A stretch of DNA of 60,848 nt from Nitrospirota bacterium (GCA_016222915.1 JACRQA010000178.1:1-60848), one strand, 5' to 3'; counted from the stretch's first letter, positions 9,420 through 46,156 are shown. A program made the numbers and translations. The notes: generated by a model not told the origin, from the sequence alone.

Positions 9420-9438
9420 TTTTATCTCTAACTGTTGA

Positions 9439-10648: not shown

Positions 10649-11851
10649 TCATGTGCTGTAATGAGCATTTATTTTTATATACCCTTCTGTCAGATCGCAT
10701 GTAAGCGCCCTGGCACTTTCTTTTCCGTTTCCCAATTCAATTGTAATGATAATATTTTTAGTTAAGAGCGCGTTTCTTGCGGTTTTTTCTTTGCCGGTCC
10801 CCATGCCGTTGCTGACAAGTTTGACTTTATTGAGGCTGATATCTATCTTGTTTTCATTGACTGCAATGCCGGAGTAACCGATTGCGGCCATGATTCTGCC
10901 CCAGTTAGGGTCCCTTCCGTATACAGCGGTTTTTACGAGCATCGAATTCGCGACTGACAACGCAATTTTCCCGGCATCTGATTTTGACCTGGCCCCTTTT
11001 ACTATTACCTCAATTAATTTTGTTGCGCCTTCCCCGTCCTCGGCAATCATCCTGGCAAGGTCATACGATATTTCATTCAATGCACTTTTAAAAATACTGT
11101 AGTCAGGGGAACGCTTTGTTATAAGAGGATTATTGAGACGGCCGTTTGCCATGATCATTACCGTATCATTAGTGCTCATATCATTATCAACGGACAACAT
11201 GTTAAATGATCTGCTCGCGGCTTCCCTGAGCGCGGCATCAAGCGCCTGCGGGTTTATCGCTATATCAGTGACTATAAAACACAGCATCGTGGCCATATTC
11301 GGGCAGATCATTCCGGCGCCTTTTGCGATTCCAGCGATAGTCCCTTTTCGCCCCCCGATTTCTATTTGTTTGAAAGATATCTTTGCAAAGGTATCCGTAG
11401 TCATTATTGAAGAGGCTGTATGCTTTAAGGACAAAGGAGATAACTTTTTGATTAAATCTGGCAGAGCTTTTTTTATTGTCTCCACAGGAAATGGTCTGCC
11501 TATTATACCGGTGGATGAGGAATAAACAAGCCCGGGGGAAATACCGAGTTCATGAGCTGTACTCGTCATGATTTCACGGGCCGCTTTCATCCCTTTTTCA
11601 CCGGTACAGGCATTGGCATTGCCGCTGTTGATAATAATGGCCTGTGCTTTCCCGGATGAAATATTTTTGATGGCCAGTTTTACCGGTGCGGCTTTTATTC
11701 TGTTTGTAGTGAAAAGACCGACGGTGACGGCAGGGCACTCTGAGTATATCAGCGCCAGGTCCCTGTTGCCGGACTTTTTAATACCCGCTGGTATGCCTGC
11801 GAATTTGAAGCCAGGTATGGTGGTATTACGAATTTTGGGACCCCTTTTCAT
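10649..11851 (-). CDS. argJ: bifunctional glutamate N-acetyltransferase / amino-acid acetyltransferase
   Basis: ArgJ autoprocessing site PNMATMLCFIVTD and the MTTDT motif. Overlaps the argC stop (TGATG). Confidence 0.93.
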   Translation of the reverse strand: MKRGPKIRNTTIPGFKFAGIPAGIKKSGNRDLALIYSECPAVTVGLFTTNRIKAAPVKLAIKNISSGKAQAIIINSGNANACTGEKGMKAAREIMTSTAHELGISPGLVYSSSTGIIGRPFPVETIKKALPDLIKKLSPLSLKHTASSIMTTDTFAKISFKQIEIGGRKGTIAGIAKGAGMICPNMATMLCFIVTDIAINPQALDAALREAASRSFNMLSVDNDMSTNDTVMIMANGRLNNPLITKRSPDYSIFKSALNEISYDLARMIAEDGEGATKLIEVIVKGARSKSDAGKIALSVANSMLVKTAVYGRDPNWGRIMAAIGYSGIAVNENKIDISLNKVKLVSNGMGTGKEKTARNALLTKNIIITIELGNGKESARALTCDLTEGYIKINAHYST

Positions 11852-12882
11852 CAGGGGGCTGCTGGGGAGGACATCAGTCCGGCTGTTTCGTCAAAGCCAA
11901 ACATGATATTCATGTTATGTACGGCTGTGCCGGACGCCCCTTTTAAGAGGTTATCAATAGCGCTGACGATTATGAGGGTCTGCTTGTCAATTGTAACGGA
12001 TATGTCGCAATAGTTGCTTCCTTTGACAGCCTTGGTGGCCGGGTATATGCCGTTTTTCAATACTCTTACAAAAGGCTCCTTGTGATAAAATTGGTGGTAC
12101 AGTTTCTGCACATTCGATAGGGTCGTTTTCTTTTTCAGGCGAACGTAAATTGTGCTGAGTATTCCCCTGTCCATGGGGATAAGATGCGGAGTAAAGATGA
12201 TTTTTATTTTATTCTTTGAAAGAGAGCTCAGTTCCTGCTCGATCTCGGGTGTATGGCGGTGGACCCCGATTGCATATGCCCGGACGGATTCATTGACTTC
12301 GCAGAACATAAACGGCTGCGCAGGACTTCTGCCGGCGCCGGACGTTCCGGATTTTGAATCTATAATAATAGAGTTCGCATTAATAAAATCTTCCCCCATT
12401 ACCGGGGCAAGACCAAGGATGGCGCTCGTAGGATAACAACCTGGGTTGGCAACGATCGACGCTTTTTTGATTTTATTCCTGTAAAGCTCAGGCAAACCGT
12501 AAACGGCATTTTTCAGAAGAGGAGAGTAAAGGTGGGGAATCTTATACCACTCTTTGTATACCTCTGCGCTTTTCAGGCGGTAATCCGCAGAAAGATCGAT
12601 AACTCTTTTGCCGGCGTTATGAAAAAACGCCACAGTTTCCTGAGAAGTCTTATGCGGAAGACACAGAAAAAACAGGTCGGCCTTTTTTGTCAGGGCTTTT
12701 AAATCCAGAGCTTCGAATTTTAACGAGGTGTTTCTGACATTAAGAAATGTGTCGGAGATGAACAGGCCGGATGAACGTTCAGAGGTGACGGCAGTTACTT
12801 CCGTATTAGGATGTGACAGAAGAAGCCGTAATAGCTCAGACCCTGTATAACCACTTCCTCCTAAGATAGCGACTTTTAGCAT
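11851..12882 (-). CDS. argC: N-acetyl-gamma-glutamyl-phosphate reductase
   Basis: GGSGYTGSELLRLL Rossmann start and active-site ANPGCYPT. Confidence 0.93.
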   Translation of the reverse strand: MLKVAILGGSGYTGSELLRLLLSHPNTEVTAVTSERSSGLFISDTFLNVRNTSLKFEALDLKALTKKADLFFLCLPHKTSQETVAFFHNAGKRVIDLSADYRLKSAEVYKEWYKIPHLYSPLLKNAVYGLPELYRNKIKKASIVANPGCYPTSAILGLAPVMGEDFINANSIIIDSKSGTSGAGRSPAQPFMFCEVNESVRAYAIGVHRHTPEIEQELSSLSKNKIKIIFTPHLIPMDRGILSTIYVRLKKKTTLSNVQKLYHQFYHKEPFVRVLKNGIYPATKAVKGSNYCDISVTIDKQTLIIVSAIDNLLKGASGTAVHNMNIMFGFDETAGLMSSPAAP

Positions 12883-12993
12883 TTAATGACCGTGTGTTCA
12901 ATTGTAATGAGTTGTGAGTGTAACCAATAGTGTGACTTCTGCGATAATGTTGTCTGTTGATGAGATACACTCTTTGCTCATTACGGATTATAA

Positions 12994-13386
12994 TTATCTC
13001 TTTGAGAACTGGAAGCGTTTTCTTGCGCCCTTCTGGCCGTACTTCTTACGTTCTACCACTCTGGGGTCTCTCGTTAATAATCCTTCTTTTTTGAGTTTTC
13101 CCCTGAAATCCGAGTTGACCGATAACAAGGCACGCGAGATGGCATGTCTGATTGCAGCGGCCTGTCCGCTGTATCCTCCGCCTTTGACCCGTACTGTTAT
13201 ATCATATTTACCACTGACAGCAGCTACATTCAACGGCTGTTGTATAATCATCTTCATTGTCTCATGGGGGAAATATTGATTGAGCGCTTTTTTATTGACA
13301 ACTATATTGCCTGTCCCGGGTTTAACAGATACCTGAGCGATGGAAGTCTTTCTTCTGCCTGTTGCACTATATTGAATTTCTGCCAT
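12994..13386 (-). CDS. rpsI: 30S ribosomal protein S9
   Basis: GRRKTSIA...GGGYSGQAAAIRHAISRAL...KKYGQKGARKRFQFSKR. Confidence 0.97.
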   Translation of the reverse strand: MAEIQYSATGRRKTSIAQVSVKPGTGNIVVNKKALNQYFPHETMKMIIQQPLNVAAVSGKYDITVRVKGGGYSGQAAAIRHAISRALLSVNSDFRGKLKKEGLLTRDPRVVERKKYGQKGARKRFQFSKR

Positions 13387-13400
13387 TTGTTAAAAGCTCC

Positions 13401-13838
13401 TTATTGGATGTTAAGATTTAAAGTTTCCGGGTTCTGGGCTTTATGCGGATGGTCCGGTCCCCTGTATACCTTTAATTTGCTGAGCTGCTGTCTGCCGAGT
13501 CTGTTTTTCGGGAGCATGCCGCGGATTGCGGAAACAAGAATGCGTTCAGGATTTACTTCCATTATGTCCTTGGCGACTTCTTTTTTAATCCCCCCTGTAT
13601 AACCGGAATGATGATAATATGTCTTTTGTTCAAGTTTATTGCCTGTAAAGCGCGCCTTGTCCGCATTTACGATAATGACAAAATCTCCGGTATCGGTATT
13701 AGGAGTAAAAATCGGTTTGTTCTTACCCCTCAGCACCTTTGCGACCTGTGAGGCCAGTCTCCCCACGACCAAACCATCAGCATCTATAATATGCCATTTC
13801 TGTTCAACATCGGTTTTCTTAGTGAAAATTGTTTTCAT
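13401..13838 (-). CDS. rplM: 50S ribosomal protein L13
   Basis: KWHIIDADGLVVGRLAS and YYHHSGYTGG motifs. Immediately upstream of rpsI. Confidence 0.97.
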   Translation of the reverse strand: MKTIFTKKTDVEQKWHIIDADGLVVGRLASQVAKVLRGKNKPIFTPNTDTGDFVIIVNADKARFTGNKLEQKTYYHHSGYTGGIKKEVAKDIMEVNPERILVSAIRGMLPKNRLGRQQLSKLKVYRGPDHPHKAQNPETLNLNIQ

Positions 13839-13880
13839 ATGTCCTCTCTATACCAAGTTGCGAAATATTTTGAACATATC

Positions 13881-13910
13881 ATGATAATGGAATATGATTT
13901 TAATTGTCAA
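13881..13910 (-). promoter_or_regulatory. sigma70-like promoter for rplM-rpsI
   Basis: On the minus strand, TTGACA-18 nt-TATCAT, about 45 nt upstream of the rplM ATG. Confidence 0.5.
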
Positions 13911-13958
13911 TACTTGGAGTGAAAAAAGGGCAGAAAGCGGGTCAATCGATCAATGAAT

Positions 13959-14144
13959 CTATATCCTGTCACAAGAGCGATTAGACAATTGCTGCCAGAC
14001 AGAGGAGTCCATTTCATTGATATACTCTTCCAATGGATAATTTCTGCCGCAATCCATGCAGCGCAGAAAGACACTCTTTCAGCCGATTTTAAGGGTCAAC
14101 TGACCTTTACATTCTCTACAGTTCAGTCTTGATTCAGGATTCAT
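13959..14144 (-). CDS. small dual-CXXC zinc-ribbon ORF interrupted by one in-frame TGA (candidate Sec/readthrough codon, or a pseudogene)
   Basis: Strong SD (AAGGGGAG, 8 nt spacer) then ATG. Translation is MNPESRLNCRECKGQLTLKIG-TGA-KSVFLRCMDCGRNYPLEEYINEMDSSVWQQLSNRSCDRI. The TGA is at 14079-14081 and a hairpin starts 9 nt after it. Confidence 0.4.
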
Positions 14145-14526
14145 AATATATACTCCCCTTATGAAATTACCTCATTGTAAATATGATACGTTAGTCGGCA
14201 ATAAAAAGTGAAGCAACTTAAACTGGTAGCAGGTTGAGTTAATAACAACATTAAAAATTAGGCCGGGTATAACTGTAACGTTGCTTGATTTTTCGGAAGT
14301 AAATTGATAATAATGAATACATTGTAATTTATTTTACATTTCAACTTTAATTATTACATCATTTTTTATACTATCTGGTCTGAAACTGGCTTTATGAGGT
14401 ATATTTCCTTACTATGAGGGGAATGCTCATAACAATACATTTCTTTTTCAAACTGCACTTATCATTCTTTGTTATCAGGATGCAAAATATCTCAAAAATT
14501 ATTAATGGCGAATTACAGGTTTTATA

Positions 14527-15273
14527 GTGACGCAAGGGAATAAGACAGCTATTATCAGCGGAGCCACAAGAGGAATAGGCCGGGCCATAGCGATTGAGCT
14601 GGCACGTGAAGGTGTAAATATAAGCTTTAATTTTCTCAAAAGCCATGAGGACGCGCTTACTCTTGAAGAGGCAGTGATTAAGTCAGGCGGCAAAGCCAAA
14701 GCATTTCAAACAGACATCAAAGATTATGCCGCTGTTAAGTCATGGGTAGATAAGTCCAGAGAATTATTCGGCGGATTGGATATTGTTATTAATAATGCAG
14801 GTGTGATTAAAGATACGGCGCTTGCTCTCATGGCTCCCGAGGACTGGCATGAAGTCATAAATACAAATTTGGACGGGACATTCAATCTCAGCAGGGCTGC
14901 CATAATAGGACTTATAAAACAGAAGCACGGCGTAATCCTTAATATTACCTCTGTAAGCGGTATGGTCGGGATTGCCCGTCAAACTAATTATTCCGCCTCA
15001 AAAGCCGGAATCATCGGGTTTACAAAATCTCTTGCCAGGGAAGTTGCTCCATACAATATCAGAGTAAATGCCGTTGCGCCCGGTTTTATTGAGACAGATA
15101 TGCTTACCGGATTAAAAAAAGAATACAAGGAGCAGGTATTAAAACAGATCCCGTTAGCCAGATTGGGCAAGGCTGAAGAAGTGGCAAGACTTGTTAAGTT
15201 TCTGGTGAGTGATGATGCGGGTTATATTACAGGACAGACTTTTGTGATTGACGGCGGACTGAGTACGGTATGA
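14527..15273 (+). CDS. fabG: 3-oxoacyl-ACP reductase (SDR), first gene of the lipid cluster
   Basis: SGATRGIGRAIA, NNAG and YSASKAG motifs. 248 aa. Confidence 0.9.
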   Translation: MTQGNKTAIISGATRGIGRAIAIELAREGVNISFNFLKSHEDALTLEEAVIKSGGKAKAFQTDIKDYAAVKSWVDKSRELFGGLDIVINNAGVIKDTALALMAPEDWHEVINTNLDGTFNLSRAAIIGLIKQKHGVILNITSVSGMVGIARQTNYSASKAGIIGFTKSLAREVAPYNIRVNAVAPGFIETDMLTGLKKEYKEQVLKQIPLARLGKAEEVARLVKFLVSDDAGYITGQTFVIDGGLSTV

Positions 15274-15277
15274 AATA

Positions 15278-16510
15278 ATGAAAGAAAGACGAATCGTAGT
15301 AACAGGACTGGGAGTAATAGCGCCTAACGGGATAGGCAAGGATGCGTTCTGGCATGCCCTCAAAGAGGGACAGTCCGGGATCAAACGGGTAAAAAGATTT
15401 GATACAAGCCAGTTTAAAAGCAAACTGGCAGGTGAGATTGATAATTTCTCACCTGCTGTTTTTTTGGGACACAAAGGATTGCGGGACCTTGAGAGGACTT
15501 CAAGACTCCTTTGTTCTGCGGCTAAATTGGCGATTGAGGATGCGGGTCTCAGCATTAACCATGACAACACTGATGACATTGGGGTCTGTACAGGGACAAC
15601 TTTATCATCTTTATGGAATTTTGCGCAGTTTGATAAAGAGACGATTCAGGAAGGGCCTCTCTTTACGAATGTTGCGCTATTCCCGGGAACGGTAATGAAC
15701 GCGGCCTCAAGCCAGGTATCGATCCGGTTTAACATCCAGGGATTTAACACGACAATTTCTAATGGCTACAGTTCAAGCATAGACGCATTAAAATACGCCA
15801 TTGATTTTATAAAACTCAGACGGATCAAGGCGGTATTGGTCGGCGGGGTCGAAAGCCTCTCTCTGGTAAATTATAGCGGTTTCTATCGTTTGGGTTTTTT
15901 TGCCGGAATAAACGGCGAGGAAGTGTCCTGCCCTTTTGATAAAAGGAGAAACGGGATCATACTTGGTGAAGGGGCGGCTGTCGTCATTATTGAAGATGAA
16001 GAGTATGCCCGAAGCAGAAATGCGAGAATCTACGCAGAGGTAAACGGGATCGGAAATTGTTTTGAGGCGTATAAAATGGGTAAATATCATCCAGGGGCCA
16101 ATGGCCTGAAGGAAAGCATCAAAGAGGCCCTCAGGACTTCAGGAATAGGACCATCCGACATCGACTATATCAGCGCGTCCGCAAATTCAGTCCGGGAACA
16201 GGACAGGTTAGAGACAATGGCGATTAAAGGGGTCTTCGGCAAGTATGCATATAATATCCCGGTTAGTTCCATCAAATCAATGATAGGAGAAACATTCAGC
16301 GCCGGCGGGCTTTTTCAGATTTCAGCCTCAATAGGCAGTATGTATAAAGGTTTTATTCCCCCGACAATTAACTATGAAATGACCGATGAAGATTGCGATC
16401 TTGATTATGTTGCCAATAAATCACGTCTTACAAGAATCAACAATGTGTTGATCAATAACTATGGCCCCGGAGGAAGTAATGCGGCATTTATTTTATCGAA
16501 AGGGCATTGA
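15278..16510 (+). CDS. ketosynthase-like protein lacking the Cys-His-His triad (chain-length-factor-like)
   Basis: KS fold (VVTGLGVIAP...). The active-site ACASG is replaced by SNGYSS, HGTGT by SANSV, and the GH of the second His box by GE. Confidence 0.8.
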   Translation: MKERRIVVTGLGVIAPNGIGKDAFWHALKEGQSGIKRVKRFDTSQFKSKLAGEIDNFSPAVFLGHKGLRDLERTSRLLCSAAKLAIEDAGLSINHDNTDDIGVCTGTTLSSLWNFAQFDKETIQEGPLFTNVALFPGTVMNAASSQVSIRFNIQGFNTTISNGYSSSIDALKYAIDFIKLRRIKAVLVGGVESLSLVNYSGFYRLGFFAGINGEEVSCPFDKRRNGIILGEGAAVVIIEDEEYARSRNARIYAEVNGIGNCFEAYKMGKYHPGANGLKESIKEALRTSGIGPSDIDYISASANSVREQDRLETMAIKGVFGKYAYNIPVSSIKSMIGETFSAGGLFQISASIGSMYKGFIPPTINYEMTDEDCDLDYVANKSRLTRINNVLINNYGPGGSNAAFILSKGH

Positions 16511-33503: not shown

Positions 33504-34343
33504 TTATAGCATTGTATTTGGTTGAGGTTGCTCAGTAGGGGAAGGCGTAAACGTTTCAACTATTTCTTCGAATACGTTATTAATATTCAAATATACGCCA
33601 TAATAGATTATAAGGTCGTCCGGCCCTCTACCAGCGTCCCATCTTGCAGTTATAAAAGGTGTTACTTCTGAGTTATTATTGTAACGCAGTTCAACGGAAC
33701 CCTTGAACCGATGTTTATTATCAAATCTCTCGCTGTAGCCATAACCTAATTCTATTGCCGACCCCTTAAATGTATTACTGTCCGGGCTAAATCCGATACC
33801 AATGAAGCTGTCCGAAAGAAAGTCATTTTCCAGTCTGCTGTCGCTGGTCAGAATGAATCCTAACTGGGGTTTTAAGTAAATAGATTCAAGTTCGTTATCG
33901 AACGGCCTTATCACGGCTGCCAACGAACCTTCTGCAACCTCTGCATCCTTTACAATTTTTTCTAATGATTGATTATTGTTGATAGTCTCTCCTTCAACGC
34001 TTTTTCGACCGAGCCTGATACCGGCAACAAGATCAACCTGTACTTCCTTGACTTGTGGTTCCTGATTGACTTGTGCTGGCGGTTTGACTTGTTTTTTTAT
34101 TACGTTGAATTGTGCTGTTATGTCGAAGAATAAGTGATTGTCTTGAAAAAGTCTGTTGTCATCTGTAGTGGCCGTTTCTCCATTAGTTGGATTTAAGGTC
34201 GAGGTTTGAAATCCTGTTCTAAAAAATGCCTGTATTTTATCAGGCGTATCCTTGTTATGTTTTGCCGCATCCTTGTTATCATCTGCAAAGGAATCCACAG
34301 CAAGAATCATACAAATAATGAATAACGCAATTTTCTTCATCAT
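33504..34343 (-). CDS. secreted hypothetical protein (possibly outer-membrane beta-rich)
   Basis: Signal peptide MMKKIALFIICMILAVDSFA. Alternating hydrophobic pattern; no catalytic motif recognised. Confidence 0.55.
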   Translation of the reverse strand: MMKKIALFIICMILAVDSFADDNKDAAKHNKDTPDKIQAFFRTGFQTSTLNPTNGETATTDDNRLFQDNHLFFDITAQFNVIKKQVKPPAQVNQEPQVKEVQVDLVAGIRLGRKSVEGETINNNQSLEKIVKDAEVAEGSLAAVIRPFDNELESIYLKPQLGFILTSDSRLENDFLSDSFIGIGFSPDSNTFKGSAIELGYGYSERFDNKHRFKGSVELRYNNNSEVTPFITARWDAGRGPDDLIIYYGVYLNINNVFEEIVETFTPSPTEQPQPNTML

Positions 34344-34559
34344 GAAAGTACCCCCTCCTGAAATTGTGATACCATTTGGATTATAAGAGCTTAAGATGCA
34401 AATTTGTTAATAGTATTTTTGAATCGTCTAAGGTACGCTTTTCATGTATTCCTCCTTTGACAAAAGGGGCGGAACTGCACAAGAAACGATTCAGCGAGAC
34501 CATGCCCCCGTTTAATGTTCTTTACAGCCTCGTTATCTTACTTCAATAAGATGGGATTT

Positions 34560-34700
34560 TGCAAGAATTCAGCAGAGCAATACGGACAAGCAACTCGTCG
34601 ACCTCGCAGGCGCCTGCATCGGTTTGAAGCATGTCAAAGGGGACGAGTCCGCCAAGTCCGTGCTGGGGCACTTAAGCCACTCAAGCGCTCCATCCTATTG
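34560..34700 (-). pseudogene. frameshifted C-terminal remnant of an Xre/MbcA/ParS-type (DUF2384-like) antitoxin
   Basis: Two adjacent minus-strand frames read DGALEWLKCP and QHGLGGLVPFDMLQTDAGACEVDELLVRI. This resembles the W-L..P...LGG..P.D.L.T..GA.EV..LL.RI toxin-binding domain. There is no N-terminal part and no toxin gene. Confidence 0.4.
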
Positions 34701-34706
34701 GTGACT

Positions 34707-37406
34707 CTATTCCAGTCTCATCAGTCTCCGCAGGCTGCCTCGCCTGAGAAACAACTTATCGAAGAAGAAGAGGTGTATCCCTGTCAGTAGCGAGCCTATA
34801 CAAATAAGCCCGAGATTAAAGATAAAATTCTTTACAGTGCGCATTGGAAACAGCCACGCAAGGGCGGGGACTATGGTAATTGCCAAAGGAAGACCGATCT
34901 TTATAATGATCTCTCCCGGTGTAAAACCTCCTGCAAAGAACGGCTCGCCCCAGTTAATGGCAAGCCACCATATACCTGCCCCTGCGGCTGCCGCCGCAAT
35001 TAAAATGGAAACAGTAAGGAGGACCGGGCTGAGCCTCAATATCTTCAAGAAAGTCTGTTTCCCGGCCTTGAGTTGTTTCTCCAGGTCAATCCGCCGCTGA
35101 TCGGTCGAGCTTCCGTCTCTTCTCATTATGTCGCAAAGACAGAGGAACGGCCACCGTTTCTTAAGGTCTTCCTCTTTCTCTTCTATAAGCATAAAGCCTT
35201 TCCATGATGCTCGGCCGGTTTTGTGCTCTTCCTTCGCGGCAAGCTCTTTCAACTCATAGCGCGTCATCGCGTAGCCGCTCATCATCAGGGCATATGCCTC
35301 GACATCAGTGAACGAATCGAGGTCCGTGCGCAGGTCCGCCAGGCAGCTCTGAATATCACGGTCAATGCCGTATGGCGTCACGGTATCACGCTTCTTCCAT
35401 AGAAACTTGTCCTTGCTGCCGACCCAGGCTATGGGTTCGCGGTCGAGGTCCTTCTTAAGATGAACAAATAACAGTCCTTCGAGGGACCTGGAATCAACGC
35501 ATTCTCTAAGCGCGTCATACTCTGCCTCCCTGATGCGGTCCATAAATATCGAGTTCGACCGCAGCAGCACGCCGAGTCTTCCTGTCTGCGGCTTGACCTG
35601 GTCGTCCATCTGTCCGGAGGCGTCGCTGCAAATGATGATGCTGCACGATTCATCGAGAAGTCCTTGTACGCCCTGATTATCGTGAACGCCTCCATCAACC
35701 AGTTGCACGTGATAACCCGGATAGAGGCCTTTCAGCTCAAGGGGCTCAAACAGTCCCGAAACACATGCTGACGCGGCCACGGCCTGCCCCAGAGGATACA
35801 GACGTAAGGATTCCTTTTCAATATCCTCGTAATAGACCCTCCTGAACCGGGCATTCATGTCAATTTCATCGCCTATCAGTCCGGGGGGTTCTCCCATGAA
35901 CTTTGCCGTGAAGTGGAAATTATGCCCCGAATTCAGTGACGTGGTATTTATGAGCAGCACCGGGACCTTTGCGCGTCTTCTCCAGTTGACCTTGAGAGGA
36001 TTGAATTCTTCCCTTGGGCCTTCACCTTTCGGCCCGATCAGGAGGTCTTTCATGGATATGCTTTTTCGCGAACACGGACCGCCGGGAGTGTTGTTGAAGA
36101 TATGCTTCTGATACAGTTCGGACAGTTTGATGCTGCGCGTATAGTTGCGAGAAAAGGTTATCTTCAGGTTGGCCCAAAAATCTCCCATGGCGCGGACCCG
36201 CAGGTTCTTCTGCACGGCACAAAGAAAATTATGCTGCACCCTCTGGACGAGTATGATGTAGTCGTCCCTGGTCAGTTGTTTGTCTTCCGTGCTTTCGAGC
36301 ATGCGCTGGAGCTCAAGATAATAATAGGCCCCGACAATGCTGCCGCCCGACACAGTCGAGATCACCTCAACACTGCTGAGAATATCGGCCTCGGCAAGCG
36401 CGGCCAATGCGCCCAGATGATAAAGCGACGCGCGAAAGCCGCCGCCTGAAAGGGCGAGACCAACCTTTCCCCTGTGCGCGCGTATGACGTCCAGAGTATT
36501 CTCCCCAGTCAGCTCCTGCAAGGCCTTCCAAGCCGGGTGCCATTCCTTGCCGTCACCGGGTATCTCTATCCCTTGCATCTTCACGATAGAGATGAGTTGT
36601 CTTACTGTAGTCTGAAGTTTCCAGATGTCTTTTGTAAGCTTGTATGCCTGCTTAAGACAATGGCCTGCCTCTTCGTATTTCTTCAGTCCCATGTAAACTT
36701 CGGCGAGCGTAACATAAAGCCAGTAATCTTTTTTGAAGGCTTCGCCTTTTGTCTCTGCCTCTTCTTTTGCCTTTTCTTCCAGTTCTTTGATCAAACCTGG
36801 AAGCTCTTCCATCCTCTTAATACGTAATTTCTTTGCCTCATCTCCATAGTACTTCGAATCCTTCGGTGGTGTCCCTGCTTTTTTTTCCGCTTTTCTTGCT
36901 TGTGATGCGAGGATATCGAGGATAAAGGCGGCATTTATTCCGCCATAGCCCTTGTCAATTTCGGGCCTTTCCCATGCGCGGAGGTAGAATGCAAGTGAAG
37001 ACTGGATGTCCTCAATGCGTCCCCGGTATTCCCATAGACGCTTATATACTGCGCCGGCAAGCCCGAGGGTCTCGGGATCGCACTTATCTCCGAGGCCGAT
37101 CTTATCGAGAATAGCCAGGGCCTTTGGAAGCCTGACGGACACATGCTCGTCTTCGTTCTTGTACGTGCATATGGCCTTTCTCTGCTGAATCCAGCGGGCC
37201 TTATCTATTTTCGCCCGTTCCTTATCGTCAGATGCCTCCTTTTTAAGAAGGTCCTTCGGAAAATGCCCTTCCAGCCTTTCAATTACCTTCAGCGCAAGGC
37301 CGAACTCCATTTCAGATTCCAATTCTTTTTCAAGTTTTTCCAACTCACCCGCCGGAGTTGATGGATCCGAAAGCAGATTATTTGTCTTTACAACGATTGT
37401 TTTCAT
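34707..37406 (-). CDS. patatin-like phospholipase with a ~300-aa helical (TPR/DUF4071-like) N-domain and 3 C-terminal TM helices
   Basis: Oxyanion LSGGGFRAS, nucleophile elbow TVSGGS (GxSxG) and catalytic Asp DGGVHDNQG. N-domain motifs ICTYK, GLAGAVYKRLW and YGGINAAF. C-terminal hydrophobic helices. SD GAGGGGGA. Confidence 0.85.
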   Translation of the reverse strand: MKTIVVKTNNLLSDPSTPAGELEKLEKELESEMEFGLALKVIERLEGHFPKDLLKKEASDDKERAKIDKARWIQQRKAICTYKNEDEHVSVRLPKALAILDKIGLGDKCDPETLGLAGAVYKRLWEYRGRIEDIQSSLAFYLRAWERPEIDKGYGGINAAFILDILASQARKAEKKAGTPPKDSKYYGDEAKKLRIKRMEELPGLIKELEEKAKEEAETKGEAFKKDYWLYVTLAEVYMGLKKYEEAGHCLKQAYKLTKDIWKLQTTVRQLISIVKMQGIEIPGDGKEWHPAWKALQELTGENTLDVIRAHRGKVGLALSGGGFRASLYHLGALAALAEADILSSVEVISTVSGGSIVGAYYYLELQRMLESTEDKQLTRDDYIILVQRVQHNFLCAVQKNLRVRAMGDFWANLKITFSRNYTRSIKLSELYQKHIFNNTPGGPCSRKSISMKDLLIGPKGEGPREEFNPLKVNWRRRAKVPVLLINTTSLNSGHNFHFTAKFMGEPPGLIGDEIDMNARFRRVYYEDIEKESLRLYPLGQAVAASACVSGLFEPLELKGLYPGYHVQLVDGGVHDNQGVQGLLDESCSIIICSDASGQMDDQVKPQTGRLGVLLRSNSIFMDRIREAEYDALRECVDSRSLEGLLFVHLKKDLDREPIAWVGSKDKFLWKKRDTVTPYGIDRDIQSCLADLRTDLDSFTDVEAYALMMSGYAMTRYELKELAAKEEHKTGRASWKGFMLIEEKEEDLKKRWPFLCLCDIMRRDGSSTDQRRIDLEKQLKAGKQTFLKILRLSPVLLTVSILIAAAAAGAGIWWLAINWGEPFFAGGFTPGEIIIKIGLPLAITIVPALAWLFPMRTVKNFIFNLGLICIGSLLTGIHLFFFDKLFLRRGSLRRLMRLE

Positions 37407-37446
37407 TTCTGTCCCCCTCTCTATGAGTTCTTATGTTGATTACCCT

Positions 37447-37728
37447 CTATCGAACTATTGAAAAACCAAGAGCCATGATCGTCTTGAGCGTCTCCATTGC
37501 GGTGACGCGGTCGTATTCCTTTTCCGACTCCGGCAGCTCAGCATATGGCACAAGGTCAGGATGAGTCTTCTTTGCGTCGTCCCGGTTCGGCCCATAGGTC
37601 CATCCTTCGGCGATACGCTTTTGCGCCCAGAGGTCGTGGTTGTTTTCCGCGAGCTTCTCAGTCAGCTCGATCAGATAGTCAGGAAGCCGGATTGCTGATG
37701 TGTCTGTAGGTTTAGGAGTATAGTCCAT
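37447..37728 (-). CDS. stand-alone RyR (ryanodine-receptor repeat) domain protein
   Basis: 93 aa. LAENNHDLWAQKRIAEGWTYGPNRDDAKKTHPDLVPYAELPESEKEYDRVTAMETLKTIMALGF matches the RyR repeat consensus along its whole length. Confidence 0.85.
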   Translation of the reverse strand: MDYTPKPTDTSAIRLPDYLIELTEKLAENNHDLWAQKRIAEGWTYGPNRDDAKKTHPDLVPYAELPESEKEYDRVTAMETLKTIMALGFSIVR

Positions 37729-37807
37729 AAATATTTACCTCACTCTGTTAAATGATCTTCAATCTCCTACACATCCTTGTCCCGCAGGTGATGGCCCATT
37801 TTGTTTA

Positions 37808-40315
37808 TCATTGACCTTCAGCAATGTCACTCTCTATCGCTTCGAGGTTTTTCTTTACAGTTTTTGTACTTGGGTGATCCGGGCCGAGTTTATTCAAAAA
37901 GGTTTCATAACTCTTCAGTGCAAGGTCTTTAGCTTCCTGCAGCTCTCCCAAATCCTGTAGCACCAGAGCCAGATTGGATTGCCTTCTGGCAATAGAGGGA
38001 TGGGCGGGCTCAAAGTTTTTTTCATTAGCAGCGAGCGCCTTGCGCAGAAGGTCTTTTGCTTCCTGCAGCTCTGCCAAATCCTGTAGCACCAGAGCCAGAT
38101 TGGATTGCCTTATGGCAATAGAGGGATGCCCTGCCTCATAGCTTTTTTCATCAGAGACCAGGGCCTTGCGCAGAAGGTCCTTAGCTTCCTGCAACTCTCC
38201 CATATCCTTCAGCACCATAGCCAGATTGGATTGCCTTATGGCAATAGAGGGATGCCCCGGCTTATAGCTCTTTTCATCAGAGGCGAGGGCCTTACGCAGA
38301 AGGTCTTTAGCTTTCTGCGACTCTCCCAAAACCCATAGCACCGTAGCTAGATTGGATTGATATGTAGCAATAAAGGGATGGCCCGCCTCATAGTTCTTTT
38401 CAGCAGAGGCGAGGGCCTTGCGCAGAAGGTTCCTGGCTTCCTGCAGCTCTCCCAAATCCTGTAGCACCGTAGCCAGATTGGATTGACATATGGCAATAGA
38501 GGGATGCCCTGGTTCAAAGCCCTTTTCAGCATTAAAAAGCGATTGCCTGCCGTATTGTTCCGCGAGCCTGTACCTTCCCCATTTTCGATTGTGCCATCTA
38601 AGATAGTTTGATAAATTCATCGCCTGTTCCGCATTTATGAATTCAGACGCTAACAATGCATCTGCATGTGGAATTATTTTTTCCAATTCAAAATATGCCG
38701 ACGAGTCTTTATCATGTTGAACACGCCCCATTTCATCTACAACCGCATCCGCCACCTTGCCGAATAAGCCGCTGTCTTTCTCAATGGTGCTCCTGACAAA
38801 CCCTGATATGAGCCTGTGCAGCCACGGCTCGTTTTCTTCATTTAGGTTAATCATAGAGAGCTTTTTATCAAGTTCTCCAATGGCGTCTGAAAGAGGATCG
38901 TTAAAGATATCTCCGGCAGGCAGGGCCAGTACCTTTTTGAGCAGCTTTCTTGGGACTGAAACCGGCGCAAGCAACGACATGGCTTGCAGTACTGCCTTTG
39001 CAGTGTCCGAGGCAATGTCCCAGCTCATCCTGAAGGTCGCGGCCACCTCCTTTGTATGCCCGTCAGGGAGCTCGTTTGCATAGTTTTTTGCAAAGGCGTC
39101 AAGGGCCTTCATCGTCCCGGTCTTTTTTATCTCACCCACAAGTCTGCCGATGGTCAAGTCTGTCCTGATATTCAGGTAATTCCTCGCAAGCTCAAGCGCA
39201 AGCGGAAGCCCGCCGAGGAGTTCCACGAGGGCCTTCGCATTTTGACCGAATTTCCTGTCACCGGAGTCAAGCAGGCCGATGCCTTCCTGCGGAGTCATGA
39301 AATTAAGATTGATATGGGCACAAGTGAGATCGCGGCGTCTTGTGGTAACGAGCACATAGATGTTTTTTTGAGGCGGCAGCCAAGGTTGGAGTGCTTCAGC
39401 TTCAGGGAAATTATCAAGGACTACAAGCACGCGCTGAGAAGAGCTGAGCATTCTCCACAGCTCATGCAACTGCTCATCTTCCTTAAGCGTCCCTTCTATT
39501 TTGAATTTCGCCCCTTCGAGGACCTGGCTGATCAAAGTGGAGATGCCCCGGTCCGCATCAATCCAGAAGACGCCTCCCGGATAGTTAAGCCCGAAGCGGT
39601 GAACGTATTCTACGGCAAGCTGGGTCTTGCCCAGCCCCCCTGTCCCCATGACAGCGCCGACGCCTTCCACTGCCGCGGTCTTGCTCTCGCGCAATATATC
39701 ATGTATCTGCCACAGATCACTGACTCTTCCGACAAAACCATTGCCTAATGAACGATAAGGCATCCTGTGTCTTTCAGGAAGACGGCAGACAGGCGGCAGC
39801 TTTGCACGGTCCGCATGGGTTAGCGGCACAGGTGACATTGACTTAGGCAATGTTTCGACCCCCGGCATGCTCATGAGCCCGGCGACTTCTTTTGCCAGCT
39901 CAGATAAATCTGAATCGATTTGATGCTCATTCCCGCCTGAAAGCGGCCGACCATCCTTCGGCCTCGCCTGTATCTTCTTAAGCCAATCAACCTGGTTCCA
40001 CACGCATGGTTTAATAACCAATGGGATTACGCGTAGACCCTTTTCCTCCCTGTGCTTGAGAAGCCTCGGTATCTCTTCTTTAAGGATAAAATTTGAATTG
40101 AGAAAATCGGCTGAGATAAGAAGAATGGCTGCTGAACAGGCACCAATGGCCTTTTCAATCTCCGGGAACCAGTCGTCGCCACTGGCTATCCGGCGGTCGT
40201 CCCACACGCTTACGAGATTTTGCTTTGCAAGGACTCCAAGGTGAACTACCACCCTGTCCTTCCAAGCCTCATCCTTGTGGCTATAACTGATAAAGACTGT
40301 AGGGTTATCCGGCAT
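37808..40315 (-). CDS. TIR - NB-ARC (STAND NTPase) - TPR repeat protein
   Basis: TIR: VFISYSHKDEAWKDRV...ILLISADFLNSNFILKEE. NB-ARC: P-loop GTGGLGKTQLA, Walker B VLVVLDNF, LVTTRR and GGLPLALELA. Five or more 42-aa TPR units follow. The start is placed at MPDNPT (SD AGGAGGGGG). Confidence 0.9.
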   Translation of the reverse strand: MPDNPTVFISYSHKDEAWKDRVVVHLGVLAKQNLVSVWDDRRIASGDDWFPEIEKAIGACSAAILLISADFLNSNFILKEEIPRLLKHREEKGLRVIPLVIKPCVWNQVDWLKKIQARPKDGRPLSGGNEHQIDSDLSELAKEVAGLMSMPGVETLPKSMSPVPLTHADRAKLPPVCRLPERHRMPYRSLGNGFVGRVSDLWQIHDILRESKTAAVEGVGAVMGTGGLGKTQLAVEYVHRFGLNYPGGVFWIDADRGISTLISQVLEGAKFKIEGTLKEDEQLHELWRMLSSSQRVLVVLDNFPEAEALQPWLPPQKNIYVLVTTRRRDLTCAHINLNFMTPQEGIGLLDSGDRKFGQNAKALVELLGGLPLALELARNYLNIRTDLTIGRLVGEIKKTGTMKALDAFAKNYANELPDGHTKEVAATFRMSWDIASDTAKAVLQAMSLLAPVSVPRKLLKKVLALPAGDIFNDPLSDAIGELDKKLSMINLNEENEPWLHRLISGFVRSTIEKDSGLFGKVADAVVDEMGRVQHDKDSSAYFELEKIIPHADALLASEFINAEQAMNLSNYLRWHNRKWGRYRLAEQYGRQSLFNAEKGFEPGHPSIAICQSNLATVLQDLGELQEARNLLRKALASAEKNYEAGHPFIATYQSNLATVLWVLGESQKAKDLLRKALASDEKSYKPGHPSIAIRQSNLAMVLKDMGELQEAKDLLRKALVSDEKSYEAGHPSIAIRQSNLALVLQDLAELQEAKDLLRKALAANEKNFEPAHPSIARRQSNLALVLQDLGELQEAKDLALKSYETFLNKLGPDHPSTKTVKKNLEAIESDIAEGQ
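37915..38544. repeat. five tandem 126-bp repeats encoding the TPR array
   Basis: The landmark tgcgcagaag recurs, with small substitutions in some units, at about 37915, 38041, 38167, 38293 and 38419 (exact 126-nt period). The units are highly similar at DNA level. Confidence 0.85.
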
Positions 40316-40362
40316 GCCCCCTCCTGATTGTTTATCCGGTGAGACAGACAAAAGCCTCATGA

Positions 40363-40391
40363 ATATTACTATCAACAGGCTTTTAAATCAA
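40363..40391 (-). promoter_or_regulatory. sigma70-like promoter upstream of the TIR-NB-ARC-TPR gene
   Basis: On the minus strand, TTGATT-17 nt-TAATAT, about 48 nt upstream of the ATG at 40315. Confidence 0.4.
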
Positions 40392-44695: not shown

Positions 44696-46156
44696 TCATC
44701 TCCTCCTTCCGCTGCCGAACAGCGAACCGAGCACCCCTCTGATTATCTGCCTTCCGACCTGGCTTCCTATCGCATGGGCCGCGCTCTTTGCGAGTGCTCC
44801 GAAAAGCTCTTCCGGTTGCGATTTAGGTCCAGCCTTCCTGCCTCTTGCAGAAGGTGTCTCCGGTTGCTCCTCGACCTTTTGCGCCACTTTTGCCTTCAAG
44901 TGTTCATAGGCTGACTCACGGTCTGTGACCTGTTCATAGTGGCCATATAGGACTGAGCCTCGGACAATCTGATTCCGTTCTTCAGGTGCTAGCGGAGTGA
45001 TACGACTTGAAGGGGGACAGATGAGCGCCCTCTCCACAATTGTCGGCGTGCCTTTTTCATCCAGGACGGAAACGAGGGCCTCGCCTACGCCCAGTTCCGT
45101 GATGGCCTTTGCAGTATCGAGCTTCGGGTTTGTCCGGAAGGTCTCCGCCGCTGATTTCACCGCCTTCTGGTCTTTTGGCGTAAAGGCCCTCAGCGCATGC
45201 TGTACCCTGTTGCCCAGTTGTCCGAGTACGGAGTCAGGAAGGTCCAACGGATTCTGTGTAATGAAATATATGCCTACGCCTTTTGAGCGGATAAGGCGGA
45301 CAACCTGTTCTATCTTGTCCACAAGCGCCTTCGGCGCATCGTCAAAGAGGAGATGTGCCTCATCAAAGAAGAAAACCAGCTTAGGTTTTTCGGGGTCTCC
45401 GGCCTCAGGGAGTTCTTCAAACAGCTCCGACATCATCCAGAGCAGGAAGGTCGAATAGAGCTTCGGGGACTGCATCAATTTATCGGCTGTAATAATATTA
45501 ATGACGCCTTTGCCCCTTGCATCGGTCTGCATTAGGTCCTCAAGATTCAGCGCAGGCTCTCCAAAGAACCTGTCTCCGCCCTGTTCTTCAATTGTAAGGA
45601 GACCGCGTTGGATAGCTCCTATACTCGCTGCGGAGATATTTCCATACTGTGTTTTGAATTGAGTTGAATTGTCTCCGACAAACTGTGCCATTGAGCGCAG
45701 GTCCTTAAGGTCCAGAAGCAGCAGTCCGTTCTCGTCGGCTATTTTAAAAATGATAGAGAGGACGCCGCTCTGCACTTCATTGAGATTTAATAGACGGCTT
45801 AAGAGAAGAGGCCCCATCTCAGAGATAGTGGTGCGTACGGGATGGCCCTGTTCACCGAAGACGTCCCAGAAGACAACAGGACATCCTTCAAAATGGAAAT
45901 CCCGAAATTGCAGCATCTGCACCCTCTCACTGATTTTGGGGTGTTCACTTCCGGGCAAGGCCATGCCTGAAAGGTCGCCTTTGACGTCTGCCATGAAAAC
46001 AGGCACGCCGATATTACTGAACTGTTCGGCAAGCACGCGGAGTGTGATGGTTTTGCCTGTCCCTGTAGCGCCGGCGATAAGCCCATGCCGGTTTGCCATT
46101 TTGGGAAGCAGAAATATCTCTTGTTCACCTTTTGCGATATATAACGGTTGGAGCAT
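44696..46156 (-). CDS. HerA-like / DUF853 (YjgR-type) P-loop ATPase
   Basis: Walker A GATGTGKT, Walker [11 protein letters not shown] and a glycine/arginine-rich C-terminal tail. Confidence 0.8.

Follow-up and report, generated by a model that had tools for sequence, protein, structure and literature searches.

Three co-oriented genes (g1, g2 and g3) of a Nitrospirota bacterium code for proteins that probably constitute a Thoeris-like abortive-infection module related to type VIII Thoeris, in which a STAND-gated TIR domain would produce the signal, a TPR-S-patatin protein would execute the response and a RyR-domain protein would buffer or terminate it. The operon is probably an anti-phage alarm whose sensor emits an NAD-derived signal to which a membrane phospholipase responds, with the RyR protein tuning the exchange between them. 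Its genes, domains, catalytic residues and layout are established, as are the recurrent synteny and the domain fusions of its components in other loci.

Gene layout and genomic setting

The genes are found in the order g1, g2, g3 on the minus strand of the window (the whole stretch of 60,848 nt that was analysed). ORF calling gives intergenic gaps of 79 and 40 nt, in agreement with the preliminary description of this DNA. The features are the following (window coordinates).

40363..40391, minus strand: promoter-like site TTGATT-17 nt-TAATAT, 5' of g1 (direct sequence reading)
37808..40315, minus strand: g1, TIR-NB-ARC-TPR STAND protein, 835 aa from ATG 40315; predicted sensor and signal generator
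39971..40297, minus strand: g1 TIR domain, ~aa 7-115 (Pfam TIR_2, 1.3e-14)
39185..39667, minus strand: g1 NB-ARC NTPase core (Pfam NB-ARC, 2e-8; P-loop GTGGLGKT; Walker B VLVVLDNF)
37826..38608, minus strand: g1 kinesin-light-chain (KLC)-type TPR array (Pfam TPR_10/TPR_12, five repeats); predicted target-recognition sensor
37729..37807, minus strand: g1-g2 spacer, 79 nt, apparent remnant of an ancestral C-terminal coding tail (by-eye match to locus L081)
37447..37728, minus strand: g2, stand-alone RyR (R12-type) protein, 93 aa; predicted cADPR-isomer binder or glycosidase
34707..37406, minus strand: g3, TPR-S + patatin + 3 TM protein, 899 aa; predicted signal receptor and membrane phospholipase effector
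36492..37406, minus strand: g3 N-terminal TPR-S / MAP3K_TRAF_bd-like helical domain, ~aa 1-305 (Pfam; AF2 model)
35667..36458, minus strand: g3 patatin domain (Pfam; oxyanion GGGFR 321-325, Ser353, Asp571)
34752..35054, minus strand: three g3 C-terminal TM segments (Kyte-Doolittle: 785-819, 828-855, 861-885)

The ORF listing of g1 (37808-40375) begins at an upstream TTG; the likelier start is the ATG at 40315, which is preceded by the SD sequence AGGAGGGGG, read directly from the sequence. GAGG-type SDs lie upstream of both g2 and g3. The promoter-like site reported 5' of g1 is present as well. It scores 8/12 against the consensus, below the scanner cut-off of 9/12, and the same motif and spacing occur at the homologous locus L081, whose positions 262-403 align with window 40394-40253 (74%) over a stretch that includes the site. 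Near the g3 start the promoter scan gives only one 9/12 match (37406-37377). The g1-g2 spacer resembles by eye the end of a 57-aa TPR-tail ORF of L081, and the blastn alignment with L081 begins at the spacer edge (window 37812); the spacer appears to be the remnant of a formerly tighter junction.

The block had been proposed to belong to an accessory island for being richer in GC than the left half of the window and for abutting a decayed antitoxin fragment. The first statement holds (50.4% versus 42-46%), but the right flank is equal to the block (~50%) and the island argument fails; the tetranucleotide deviation of the block is the highest in the contig, though marginally so. Six-frame translation of 34331-34720 yields no recognisable antitoxin remnant. 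Seven genes flanking the operon were scanned; all are either housekeeping genes or without annotation, and the flanks do not form a defence island. No ThsI-like gene is found among the ORFs or these seven genes.

Domains and predicted biochemistry of the three proteins

The domain set assigned in the preliminary description (TIR, NB-ARC, TPR, RyR and patatin) was found in full by Pfam, and the motifs quoted for g1 and g3 are present in the translations. With its Walker A/B NTPase, N-terminal effector domain and C-terminal repeats (TPR_10/TPR_12, ~1e-36), g1 has the make-up of a STAND protein. Its NTPase region matches AfsR (8e-18) and its TPR array KLC TPR structures (~1e-21) in PDB, while in an alignment with Roq1/RPV1 the Glu of its NFILKEEI motif coincides with their catalytic Glu region. 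The best PADLOC match of g1 is the TIR of Thoeris ThsB (ThsB1, 4e-26), the others including SAVED-TIR (best model 6.5e-12) and models named Effector (5e-6 or weaker); among PADLOC models the g1 TIR therefore appears nearest to the signal-producing ThsB TIR. The Avs1-5 and bNACHT models do not match the g1 NTPase, PADLOC giving only matches to the TIR region and a weak one to mad8 (0.0097). The NCBIfam model FxSxx_TPR scores 272 bits on g1, under its cut-off of 300.

The Pfam RyR domain (PF02026, 2e-37) spans the full length of g2, whose structural matches are the RyR2 repeat (1e-70) and B. thetaiotaomicron 3NRT (5e-34). Identity to the phage proteins RyDEP and RyR Tad is 37% and 40%, respectively, while the host RyR family is ~50% identical to animal RyR repeats and thus far nearer to them than to the phage proteins. 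Residues H31, W34, H56 and D73 of g2, invariant in the alignment, correspond to H75, W78, H100 and D117 of RyDEP, so that all four ligand/catalytic residues are kept (for their roles in the RyDEP pocket see PMC13232231). Phage proteins with a RyR domain act on 2'/3'cADPR and cADPR as hydrolases or as sponges (PMC13232231; 10.64898/2026.06.04.730250; 2026 preprints). Binding or hydrolysis of a cADPR isomer is the concrete biochemistry predicted for g2, replacing the vague role of adaptor. Sequence alone does not separate a sponge from a glycosidase, since sponge-type phage homologues retain the same H/W/H/D residues as the hydrolases (PMC13232231), and whether g2 acts positively or negatively is likewise not readable from it.

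Pfam detects TPR-S (PF20308; 8e-12, aa 70-162), a weak MAP3K_TRAF_bd (3e-4) and Patatin (5e-16) in g3, which bears out the early guess of a DUF4071/MAP3K_TRAF-like amino terminus. The AF2 model of g3 (pLDDT 77, pTM 0.80) has an all-helical N-terminal domain of high pLDDT and also shows as helices the three hydrophobic C-terminal segments, which correspond to the TM helices of the preliminary description and lie in a region conserved in 77/80 related loci. The patatin domain matches PlpD in PDB and its catalytic set (GGGFRAS, S353 in TVSGGS, D571GG) is invariant over 20 g3 homologues (alignment A1). Full-length homologues with both PF20308 and PF01734 number over 3000. The family occurs in 554 or more species genomes, with ~45% identity across phyla and a mean column identity of 55%, an unusual conservation for a defence gene. 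No PADLOC model matches g2 or g3, CapV included for the latter.

Recurrence of the linkage in other loci

In other contigs, RyR orthologues 83-88% identical to g2 lie between genes of the TIR-STAND or TIR-WD40 type and genes for TPR-S effectors. RyR has this position in L081, L085, L087, L088, L049 and L127. The L081 order is TIR remnant - RyR - TPR-S-patatin and includes an overlap of 4 nt; its g1 carries a large internal deletion and its RyR and patatin genes are intact. The operon is found at 83% DNA identity in different genomic contexts, in L081 beside tRNA-Glu. Gene order is RyR - unknown protein - pYEATS - TPR-S-patatin - TIR-STAND in L088, TIR-WD40 - RyR - pYEATS in L087, and TIR-NACHT-TPR paralogues - RyR - SLOG-TIR - 1782-aa protein in L085, the latter protein having lipase-like (LCAT), CHAT and TPR-S matches. 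In L049 and L127, RyR and TIR stand next to an NB-ARC-TPR-S-patatin-TM protein. In L147 and L113 the gene directly after RyR codes for a g1-like TIR-...-TPR or a TIR-NB-ARC-WD40 protein. TIR-STAND or TIR-WD40 genes adjoin RyR in L085, L087, L099, L113, L127, L135 and L147. Across 80 RyR-centred metagenome loci, the gene directly 3' of RyR codes for TIR_2 in 7/49 cases and for TPR-S in another 7/49, NB-ARC and SLATT being found there too. Of the RyR loci 5 kb or longer, 20/28 contain a TIR or TPR-S gene, and TIR ORF density falls ~9-fold, from 0.85 per 10 kb at less than 3 kb from RyR to 0.09 at more than 5 kb. RyR homologues are also linked to TIR or TPR-S genes by fusion or by translational coupling, in which start and stop codons overlap. 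RyR-TPR-S fusions occur in 8 loci (L101 checked by Pfam), and a single 2157-aa ORF of L034 codes for ParA-like-TIR-NB-ARC-TPR-S-patatin. The preliminary description named a lack of co-occurrence beyond chance as a refutation. Its core idea that STAND-TIR output licenses a membrane patatin, with RyR as regulator, withstands this and is supported: in other loci the parts are found together far more often than by chance, and they also occur fused.

The fixed trio g1-g2-g3 is nevertheless rare. In 80 TPR-S-patatin loci surveyed for neighbours within 5 kb, RyR is found in only 4 and a TIR or ThsI-like gene in 44, neither of the latter two being detected in the other 36. The commonest neighbour of g3 homologues is a ThsI-like gene (Rossmann-like domain + TPR-S; 33/80). 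Neighbourhoods are hypervariable, with TIR, STAND, caspase/CHAT, SLATT, TCAD9 and toxin-antitoxin genes, and such variable, TIR/STAND-rich neighbourhoods are typical of conflict systems. The g1 homologues sampled (n=3, 51-53% identical) are stand-alone genes without a RyR or TPR-S neighbour, surrounded by housekeeping or toxin-antitoxin genes, so that the g1 TIR could act on its own as an effector that depletes NAD+, in the manner of Avs. The operon would then consist of two independent units side by side, an Avs-like g1 and a separate RyR + TPR-S-patatin module that answers another signal source, or none in this genome. We consider this rather unlikely. The solitary g1 homologues, the lack of STAND-TIR in most TPR-S-patatin loci (the ThsI-like TPR-S partner taking its place in 33/80), the retention of RyR-patatin in L081 despite the g1 deletion and the role of Avs TIRs as NADase effectors according to Yirmiya et al. 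(10.64898/2025.12.03.692087) speak for independence, but they are opposed by the one promoter-like site 5' of g1 (only the 9/12 match being found near the g3 start), the short gaps and the probable trace of a tighter g1-g2 junction. The repeated adjacency of RyR to TIR-STAND/TIR-WD40 genes in the loci listed above, the one-ORF fusion of L034 and the proximity of the g1 TIR to ThsB also argue for a single pathway.

Proposed mechanism and relation to known systems

In the Thoeris-like module that we favour, the initial steps follow TIR and STAND biology: the g1 TPR array would recognise an infection cue and NTP-dependent oligomerisation would gather the TIRs, which would turn NAD+ into a cyclic ADP-ribose-type messenger. 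Judging from the g3 domains and the type VIII Thoeris precedent, TPR-S would receive this messenger and switch on the patatin phospholipase, anchored to the inner membrane by the 3 TM, and the degradation of membrane lipids would lead the infected cell to die or to stop growing. Ligand binding by TPR-S is itself a prediction. The g2 RyR-domain dimer would, most likely, soak up or degrade basal messenger, so that the lipase fires only once production passes a threshold, and may also end the signal. Its gene lies within a host TIR/TPR-S operon and its homologues are fused to TPR-S, hence g2 is presumably a self-regulator; that it carries a domain used by phages against the signal suggests that the host tunes its own alarm.

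The same architecture could operate with g2 in a positive role, as the true messenger receptor, docking on TPR-S to activate the lipase, or as a processor of the TIR product that, for example, opens a cADPR isomer and so yields the ligand that TPR-S in fact binds. This variant is quite improbable: type VIII Thoeris (TIR + ThsI) functions without RyR, cADPR in the medium being sufficient to halt growth of expressing E. coli (10.64898/2025.12.03.692087), RyR is near only 4/80 TPR-S-patatin loci, and the RyR-domain proteins characterised all turn signalling off (PMC13232231; 10.64898/2026.06.04.730250). It draws on the RyR-TPR-S fusions, on the start/stop overlaps of RyR with the downstream gene, which suggest equal-dose co-expression or a physical complex, on proteins or peptides being the usual TPR ligands and on the product of the RyDEP reaction being a defined ADPR anomer (PMC13232231). 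Under a non-immune reading the lipase would be a conserved enzyme of membrane-lipid remodelling or stress signalling that responds to NAD/ADPR and has accessory regulators. This would agree with the conservation of the g3 family, the housekeeping flanks and the PADLOC blank for g2 and g3, but is very improbable in view of the hypervariable, conflict-type neighbourhoods, of the operon being found in differing genomic contexts and of the protection against phage conferred by TIR + TPR-S systems (10.1101/2023.05.26.542521; 10.64898/2025.12.03.692087).

The Thoeris-like reading relates the operon to type VIII Thoeris, where a TIR protein is likewise encoded beside a TPR-S effector presumed to perceive the TIR-made messenger; the type VIII effector ThsI holds TPR-S and responds to canonical cADPR, as does the SLATT effector of type VII (Yirmiya et al., 10.64898/2025.12.03.692087). 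Note that SLATT and TPR-S, both effector domains of cADPR-responsive Thoeris types, are found among RyR neighbours. The operon has a TIR with an intact catalytic Glu (g1) and an adjacent TPR-S effector (PF20308 in g3). Unlike in type VIII, however, the TIR is not of the small ThsB type but is embedded with NB-ARC and TPRs in the 835-aa STAND protein, g3 has patatin + 3 TM in place of the CMP-hydrolase / nucleoside deoxyribosyltransferase-like enzyme of ThsI, and a RyR gene intervenes. STAND-fused TIRs were left out of the Thoeris survey of Yirmiya et al., in which Avs TIRs are treated as NADase effectors (10.64898/2025.12.03.692087). Burroughs & Aravind (J Bacteriol 2020, e00365-20) predicted that TPR-S (PF20308), a domain related to the ASK1 MAP3K_TRAF_bd region, acts as a sensor for signals derived from NAD+. 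Their work, as summarised in 10.1101/2023.05.26.542521, describes TIR, SLOG, patatin and caspase neighbours, with 'Patatin-Tpr assemblies' in 4/78 operons. The combination of TPR-S and patatin in g3, with a TIR gene two genes upstream, conforms to these systems; the summary mentions no RyR component or STAND-embedded TIR. Unlike in these systems and in BcTir/Tpr (10.1101/2023.05.26.542521), the core Tpr gene is absent from the window, the g3 TPR-S being fused straight to the lipase.

The tripartite TIR-NTPase-repeat architecture of g1 is that of Avs / bacterial NLR-like proteins and plant TNLs. In plants, too, the small messengers generated by the TIRs of TNLs are perceived by distinct lipase-like proteins, those of the EDS1 family. 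Relative to Avs, the g1 NTPase is NB-ARC/AfsR-like and its TPRs are of the KLC type; the TIRs of Avs presumably kill by depleting NAD+, while g1 is linked to a dedicated downstream effector. CapV of CBASS is, like g3, a patatin phospholipase, is activated by a nucleotide messenger and kills the cell via its membrane, but has a direct cGAMP site instead of a TPR-S sensor, while g3 is an integral membrane protein. No CD-NTase cyclase domain is found in g1, g2 or g3, and the seven flanking genes are of the housekeeping or unannotated kinds given above. RyDEP (DyoEdafos gp78) and RyR Tad (Pectobacterium phage CB1 gp68) share with g2 the PF02026 fold and the conserved H/W/H/D pocket. They are phage anti-defence proteins, whereas g2 is encoded within a host TIR/TPR-S operon, chromosomal and with housekeeping flanks, which is not the setting of a phage anti-defence gene. 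Host removal of a cyclic messenger has a functional analogy in the ring nucleases (Crn1-3, Csx3) and self-limiting Csm6 of type III CRISPR, where it sets a threshold or resets the system, as g2 would do here; folds and messengers are unrelated, and self-degrading CARF effectors parallel the RyR-TPR-S fusions.

The preliminary description knew of no system combining these components. This holds in so far as no PADLOC model covers g2 or g3, but not in view of the precedent in TPR-S/type VIII Thoeris signalling. The operon is a variant of TPR-S/Thoeris-type TIR signalling and not a categorically new system, its new elements being a RyR component encoded by the host, a TIR embedded in a STAND protein and the TPR-S-patatin effector.

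Organization and history of the operon

The trio of genes noticed in the preliminary description is borne out by ORF calling and by Pfam domains. The genes lie in the same orientation in the 60,848-bp window, an entire contig of a Nitrospirae MAG, and are spaced by 79 nt (g1-g2) and 40 nt (g2-g3), with ribosome-binding sites of the GAGG type ahead of g2 and g3. As called, the ORF of g1, the TIR-NB-ARC-TPR STAND protein, begins at TTG 40375; the convincing start is ATG 40315, which has AGGAGGGGG just before it and yields a protein of 835 aa (37808-40315).

Features of the operon in the window
34707-40375, minus strand: three ORFs in the same orientation (ORF calling)
34707-37406, minus strand: g3, 899 aa, with Pfam matches to TPR-S (PF20308, 8e-12), MAP3K_TRAF_bd (weak) and Patatin (5e-16)
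37447-37728, minus strand: g2, 93 aa, RyR domain over its full length (Pfam, 2e-37)
40391-40363: candidate promoter TTGATT-17-TAATAT upstream of g1, 8/12 consensus positions

The sigma70-like promoter proposed ahead of g1 stands in part. Its motif is present, and recurs in the homologous locus L081 within a stretch that can be aligned with the window. Its score of 8/12 keeps it off the list of the sigma-70 scanner, and the alignment with L081 is the only reason for which it is retained as plausible. The operon is flanked on one side by genes coding TilS, a GT2 glycosyltransferase, GltX and an unannotated secreted protein of 279 aa, and on the other by genes coding a DUF1499 protein, a PBP-like protein, a PAS histidine kinase and a HerA-like ATPase. 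None of the scanned flanking genes is a defence gene. The HerA-like ATPase (HerA_C, 1.5e-230; 44696-46156, minus strand) is found 4 kb off the operon; some defence systems include HerA partners. The GC content of the operon block (50.4%) equals that of the right flank (~50%), which disposes of the GC-rich accessory island seen by eye, and six-frame translation yielded no remnant of the decayed antitoxin that had been thought to abut it.

Locus L081 (1-3738; JGI Ga0373622_0048710) codes a TIR remnant, RyR and a TPR-S-patatin protein in this order, with a 4-nt overlap, and its patatin is 84% identical to that of the window. The two DNAs share 83% identity from the g1 end through g3 and 74% over the promoter and first g1 codons, while in L081 ~2.4 kb of g1 have given way to a TIR stub of 75 aa and a TPR tail of 57 aa. 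L081 is a copy in decay, or else a working RyR-patatin pair that does without its TIR-STAND. The 79-nt spacer between g1 and g2 (37729-37807) resembles by eye the 3' end of the L081 TPR-tail ORF, which argues that the g1-g2 junction was formerly tighter; the window g1 seems to have gained an earlier stop, the ancestral one having been a few nucleotides away from the SD of g2. The L081 operon is positioned directly downstream of tRNA-Glu (21-98) whereas the window copy is found amid housekeeping genes, pointing to a mobile module.

The TIR-STAND protein and the predicted TPR-S-patatin effector

In protein g1 Pfam finds TIR_2 (1e-14), NB-ARC (2e-8) and TPR_10/12, the last as five repeats of KLC type, and the translation shows a P-loop, GTGGLGKT, and a Walker B motif, VLVVLDNF. 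In an alignment with Roq1 and RPV1, two TIRs of plants, the Glu-Glu pair of NFILKEEI in its TIR falls in their catalytic Glu region. The nearest PADLOC model of this TIR is the signal-producing Thoeris ThsB (4e-26); the best SAVED-TIR model has 6.5e-12, and models named Effector have 5e-6 or weaker. The PADLOC matches of g1 are confined to the TIR region, no Avs/NLR model matching its NTPase, and among NCBIfam models FxSxx_TPR reaches 272 bits, under its cut-off of 300. The three close g1 homologues sampled as a synteny probe are stand-alone genes, which makes the three-gene reading weaker, not stronger. The homologue search recovered g2 and g3 at 100% identity and missed the window's own g1, for which the best match had 46% identity; either the source record annotates g1 differently or as a pseudogene, or the word-index search on a TPR-rich query hid it. 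Note that a solved 824-aa 'Tetratricopeptide repeat protein' (PDB 9m0n / 9umd) begins with a TIR that bears a weak resemblance to the g1 TIR (E 0.005) and may be an experimentally studied protein combining an N-terminal TIR with TPR repeats.

The carboxyl terminus of g3 has three hydrophobic helices, and residues G321-G323/R325, S353 and D571 are invariant in the homologue alignment. Neither g2 nor g3 matches a PADLOC model, and NCBIfam gave nothing useful for either. Foldseek comparison of the g3 AF2 model to the PDB returned generic TPR matches alone, none with E < 1e-3, with ASK1 (8qgy_B) at rank 41; the relation between TPR-S and ASK1 therefore stands on Pfam alone. The g3 family is full-length and strongly conserved, with more than 3000 matches of ~45% identity in many phyla and relatives in at least 554 species genomes. 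Its gene neighbourhoods, assessed in 80 loci with flanks of up to 10 kb per side, are highly variable. The most frequent partner, found in 33 of these loci, is a ~440-aa protein with a Rossmann-like amino terminus and TPR-S; by its architecture it looks like the 'core Tpr'/ThsI type of protein described in 10.1101/2023.05.26.542521 and 10.64898/2025.12.03.692087. Our own profiles place a TIR gene no more than 5 kb from the g3-family gene in 23/80 loci, and either a TIR gene or the ~440-aa partner in 44/80; RyR is nearby in only 4/80. These counts identify RyR and the STAND-embedded TIR as accessory to the g3 effector family and not as its core.

Host RyR proteins and their gene neighbourhoods

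Host-encoded RyR is the most interesting element of the operon. As a family, stand-alone RyR proteins (~94 aa) are remarkably conserved, with 65-89% identity between phyla. Protein g2 shares ~50% identity with repeat 1 of animal RyR2 (1e-70), has a relative in B. thetaiotaomicron (3NRT), and is 37-40% identical to the phage anti-Thoeris proteins RyDEP and RyR Tad. Its H31, W34, H56 and D73, which do not vary within the host family, line up with H75, W78, H100 and D117 of RyDEP. The nearest g2 orthologues occupy operons of the same kind, in L081 and in the first three loci listed here.

RyR operons and domain fusions in other genomes and metagenomes
L088: RyR, 232-aa unknown protein, pYEATS, TPR-S-patatin, TIR-STAND
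L085: three TIR-NACHT-TPR paralogues, RyR, SLOG-TIR, 1782-aa protein with DUF7379, LCAT, CHAT and TPR-S matches
L087: caspase, TIR-WD40, RyR, pYEATS
L101 (10001-12265), L107, L124, L128, L145, L151, L159 and L152 (524 aa): RyR-TPR-S fusions
L034 (7361-13831; Chthoniobacter MAG): single 2157-aa ORF with ParA-like, TIR, NB-ARC, TPR-S, patatin and TM
L049 (6145-12610; Bryobacterales MAG) and L127 (7021-17741): one cluster with RyR, a TIR protein and an NB-ARC-TPR-S-patatin-TM protein

The dense L085 locus (1-16279; Nitrospirae GCA_016217675.1, JACRHC010000056), which also codes a PhdYeFM antitoxin and a small TIR and whose SLOG-TIR has SLOG of the LDcluster4 type, shows this theme on a much larger scale, again in the Nitrospirae. 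In L088 (389-1391) and L087 (8334-9334), RyR is separated from the effector by genes for an unannotated protein of 180-232 aa and a 100-aa prokaryotic YEATS (PF03366/PF20305), and the 1195-aa protein P0081 has YEATS/pYEATS, TPR-S and patatin matches within one chain. pYEATS may be a further optional component.

Same-strand immediate neighbours of RyR were annotated with Pfam in 80 metagenome loci. Downstream (n=49) they include TIR_2 (7), TPR-S (7), TCAD9 (4), NB-ARC (3), nSTAND5 (3) and SLATT (2); upstream (n=54), RyR (7), TrkA_N (3), SLATT (3), TIR (2), TPR-S (2) and NUDIX (2). With our own profiles, 20 of the 28 RyR loci of at least 5 kb have a TIR or TPR-S gene. TIR ORFs reach 0.85 per 10 kb at less than 3 kb from RyR vs 0.09 beyond 5 kb, a ~9-fold enrichment, and TPR-S 0.49 vs 0. 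The jackhmmer TIR profile gave at least one false positive, a phosphofructokinase (L095 4032-6776), so that TIR counts from own profiles are approximate and the Pfam neighbour counts safer. Directly after RyR are found a g1-like TIR-...-TPR_10/12 protein in L147, with a 4-nt overlap, and a TIR-NB-ARC-WD40 protein in L113. At L126 386-5303, L095 7028-10573 and L129 2091-5086 the stand-alone RyR adjoins a large protein that also ends in RyR, such as TrkA_N-RyR (626 aa) in L126 and a 908-aa protein with a weak nSTAND5 match in L095. RyR thus has partners of NAD-binding and STAND type as well, with no TIR in view.

Fusion to TPR-S was detected with own profiles in eight loci (seven proteins of ~755 aa and one of 524 aa) and confirmed by Pfam for L101. 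The carboxyl-terminal ~470 aa of the ~755-aa fusions are matched by no Pfam model and could form an effector domain so far undescribed. The giant ORFs of L034, L049 and L127 combine ParA/CbiA-like, (TIR), NB-ARC, TPR-S, patatin and TM, with RyR and a separate TIR gene upstream in L049 and L127; TPR-S occupies in them the usual position of the STAND sensor repeats. Fusions join every element of the trio. It is unlikely that g1 is autonomous and merely adjacent to RyR and patatin: its sampled homologues stand alone and L081 has it deleted, while the operon structure, the repeated adjacency of RyR to TIR-STAND genes and the L034 fusion oppose this reading.

An origin of g2 as a prophage anti-defence gene was rejected, as there are no phage genes nearby and g2 is coupled, elsewhere fused, to host effector genes. 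An unannotated 8.5-kb contig from human faeces labelled 'UNVERIFIED Bacteriophage sp.' (MT836850.1; L175 7046-7348) codes a RyR protein 64% identical to g2. Verified phage RyR proteins are 40% or less identical to g2 over comparable lengths, far below this value, and L175 may stem from misbinning of a bacterial fragment or from a recent transfer of the gene from host to phage.

Candidate signalling pathway and relation to known systems

Burroughs & Aravind (2020), as summarized in 10.1101/2023.05.26.542521, defined TPR-S as a TPR scaffold and predicted that it senses signals derived from NAD+; the neighbours that the summary lists are TIR, SLOG, patatin, calcineurin and caspase. Anti-phage activity was reported for BcTir/Tpr (10.1101/2023.05.26.542521). 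Type VIII Thoeris (TIR and ThsI, a CMP-hydrolase-like domain with TPR-S) was validated and is specific for canonical cADPR, as is type VII (TIR and SLATT) (10.64898/2025.12.03.692087). Both types were probed for toxicity with cADPR isomers supplied in the culture medium. That survey by Yirmiya et al. left out Avs-type and stand-alone TIRs, and its tables contain 'SLOG Patatin' and neither TPR-S-patatin nor RyR (10.64898/2025.12.03.692087). Thoeris-type systems make cADPR-family messengers that phage RyR-domain proteins destroy or sponge, overcoming the defence, as described in two 2026 preprints (PMC13232231; 10.64898/2026.06.04.730250). RyDEP opens 2'/3'cADPR as a glycosidase, for which H75/D117 form the dyad while W78 stacks on the adenine and H100 sits on the phosphates, and further homologues are nanomolar sponges (PMC13232231). 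RyR Tad is a sponge for 3'cADPR, 2'cADPR and cADPR (10.64898/2026.06.04.730250). Host-encoded RyR genes in TIR operons are mentioned neither in the RyDEP preprint (PMC13232231) nor in the available part of the RyR Tad one (10.64898/2026.06.04.730250), and several literature searches for TPR-S/RyR/patatin combinations found nothing.

Synteny and fusions support in silico the earlier proposal that the TIR-STAND output licenses the patatin with RyR as regulator. The view that the module has no precedent gives way to its placement as a variant of Thoeris/TPR-S TIR signalling. In the mechanism that we infer, the g1 TPR array would detect an infection cue and the NB-ARC module would drive oligomerization, activating the TIR to produce a cADPR-type messenger. 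Its perception by the g3 TPR-S would turn on the membrane-anchored patatin lipase and lead to abortive infection, while a g2 dimer would set the threshold by binding or cleaving the messenger and may also reset the system. RyR is associated with TPR-S and SLATT, two effector classes responsive to canonical cADPR, which weakly suggests that the signal may be cADPR itself. A positive role of RyR, as receptor or signal processor, is quite unlikely given that type VIII Thoeris functions without it. A non-immune lipid-remodelling function, whose sole support is the high conservation and the housekeeping flanks, is highly improbable.

It is possible, if short of likely, that host RyR proteins, which share ~50% identity with animal RyR repeat 1-2, are integral buffers or terminators ('ring nucleases') of cADPR-based Thoeris-like immunity, wired to TIR-STAND generators and TPR-S/SLATT effectors, and the evolutionary source of phage RyDEP/RyR Tad and of the nucleotide-binding R12 module in ryanodine receptors of animals. 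If true, this would be a direct tie between immune signalling in bacteria and the control of calcium release by cADPR. No host-encoded off-switch or threshold-setter for cADPR-family messengers was found described in the searchable literature. Were g2 to play this role, the origin of the phage counter-defence would be explained, a small and highly conserved bacterial protein would be at hand to probe ligands of the animal RyR R12 repeat, and TIR signalling would gain a counterpart of the CRISPR ring nucleases. The locus also takes the TPR-S sensor to a predicted membrane phospholipase effector, outside current defence-finder models. Its organization, in which a lipase effector encoded apart is coupled to a TIR of STAND/NLR type, is reminiscent of plant TNL-EDS1 immunity, here in a bacterial operon.
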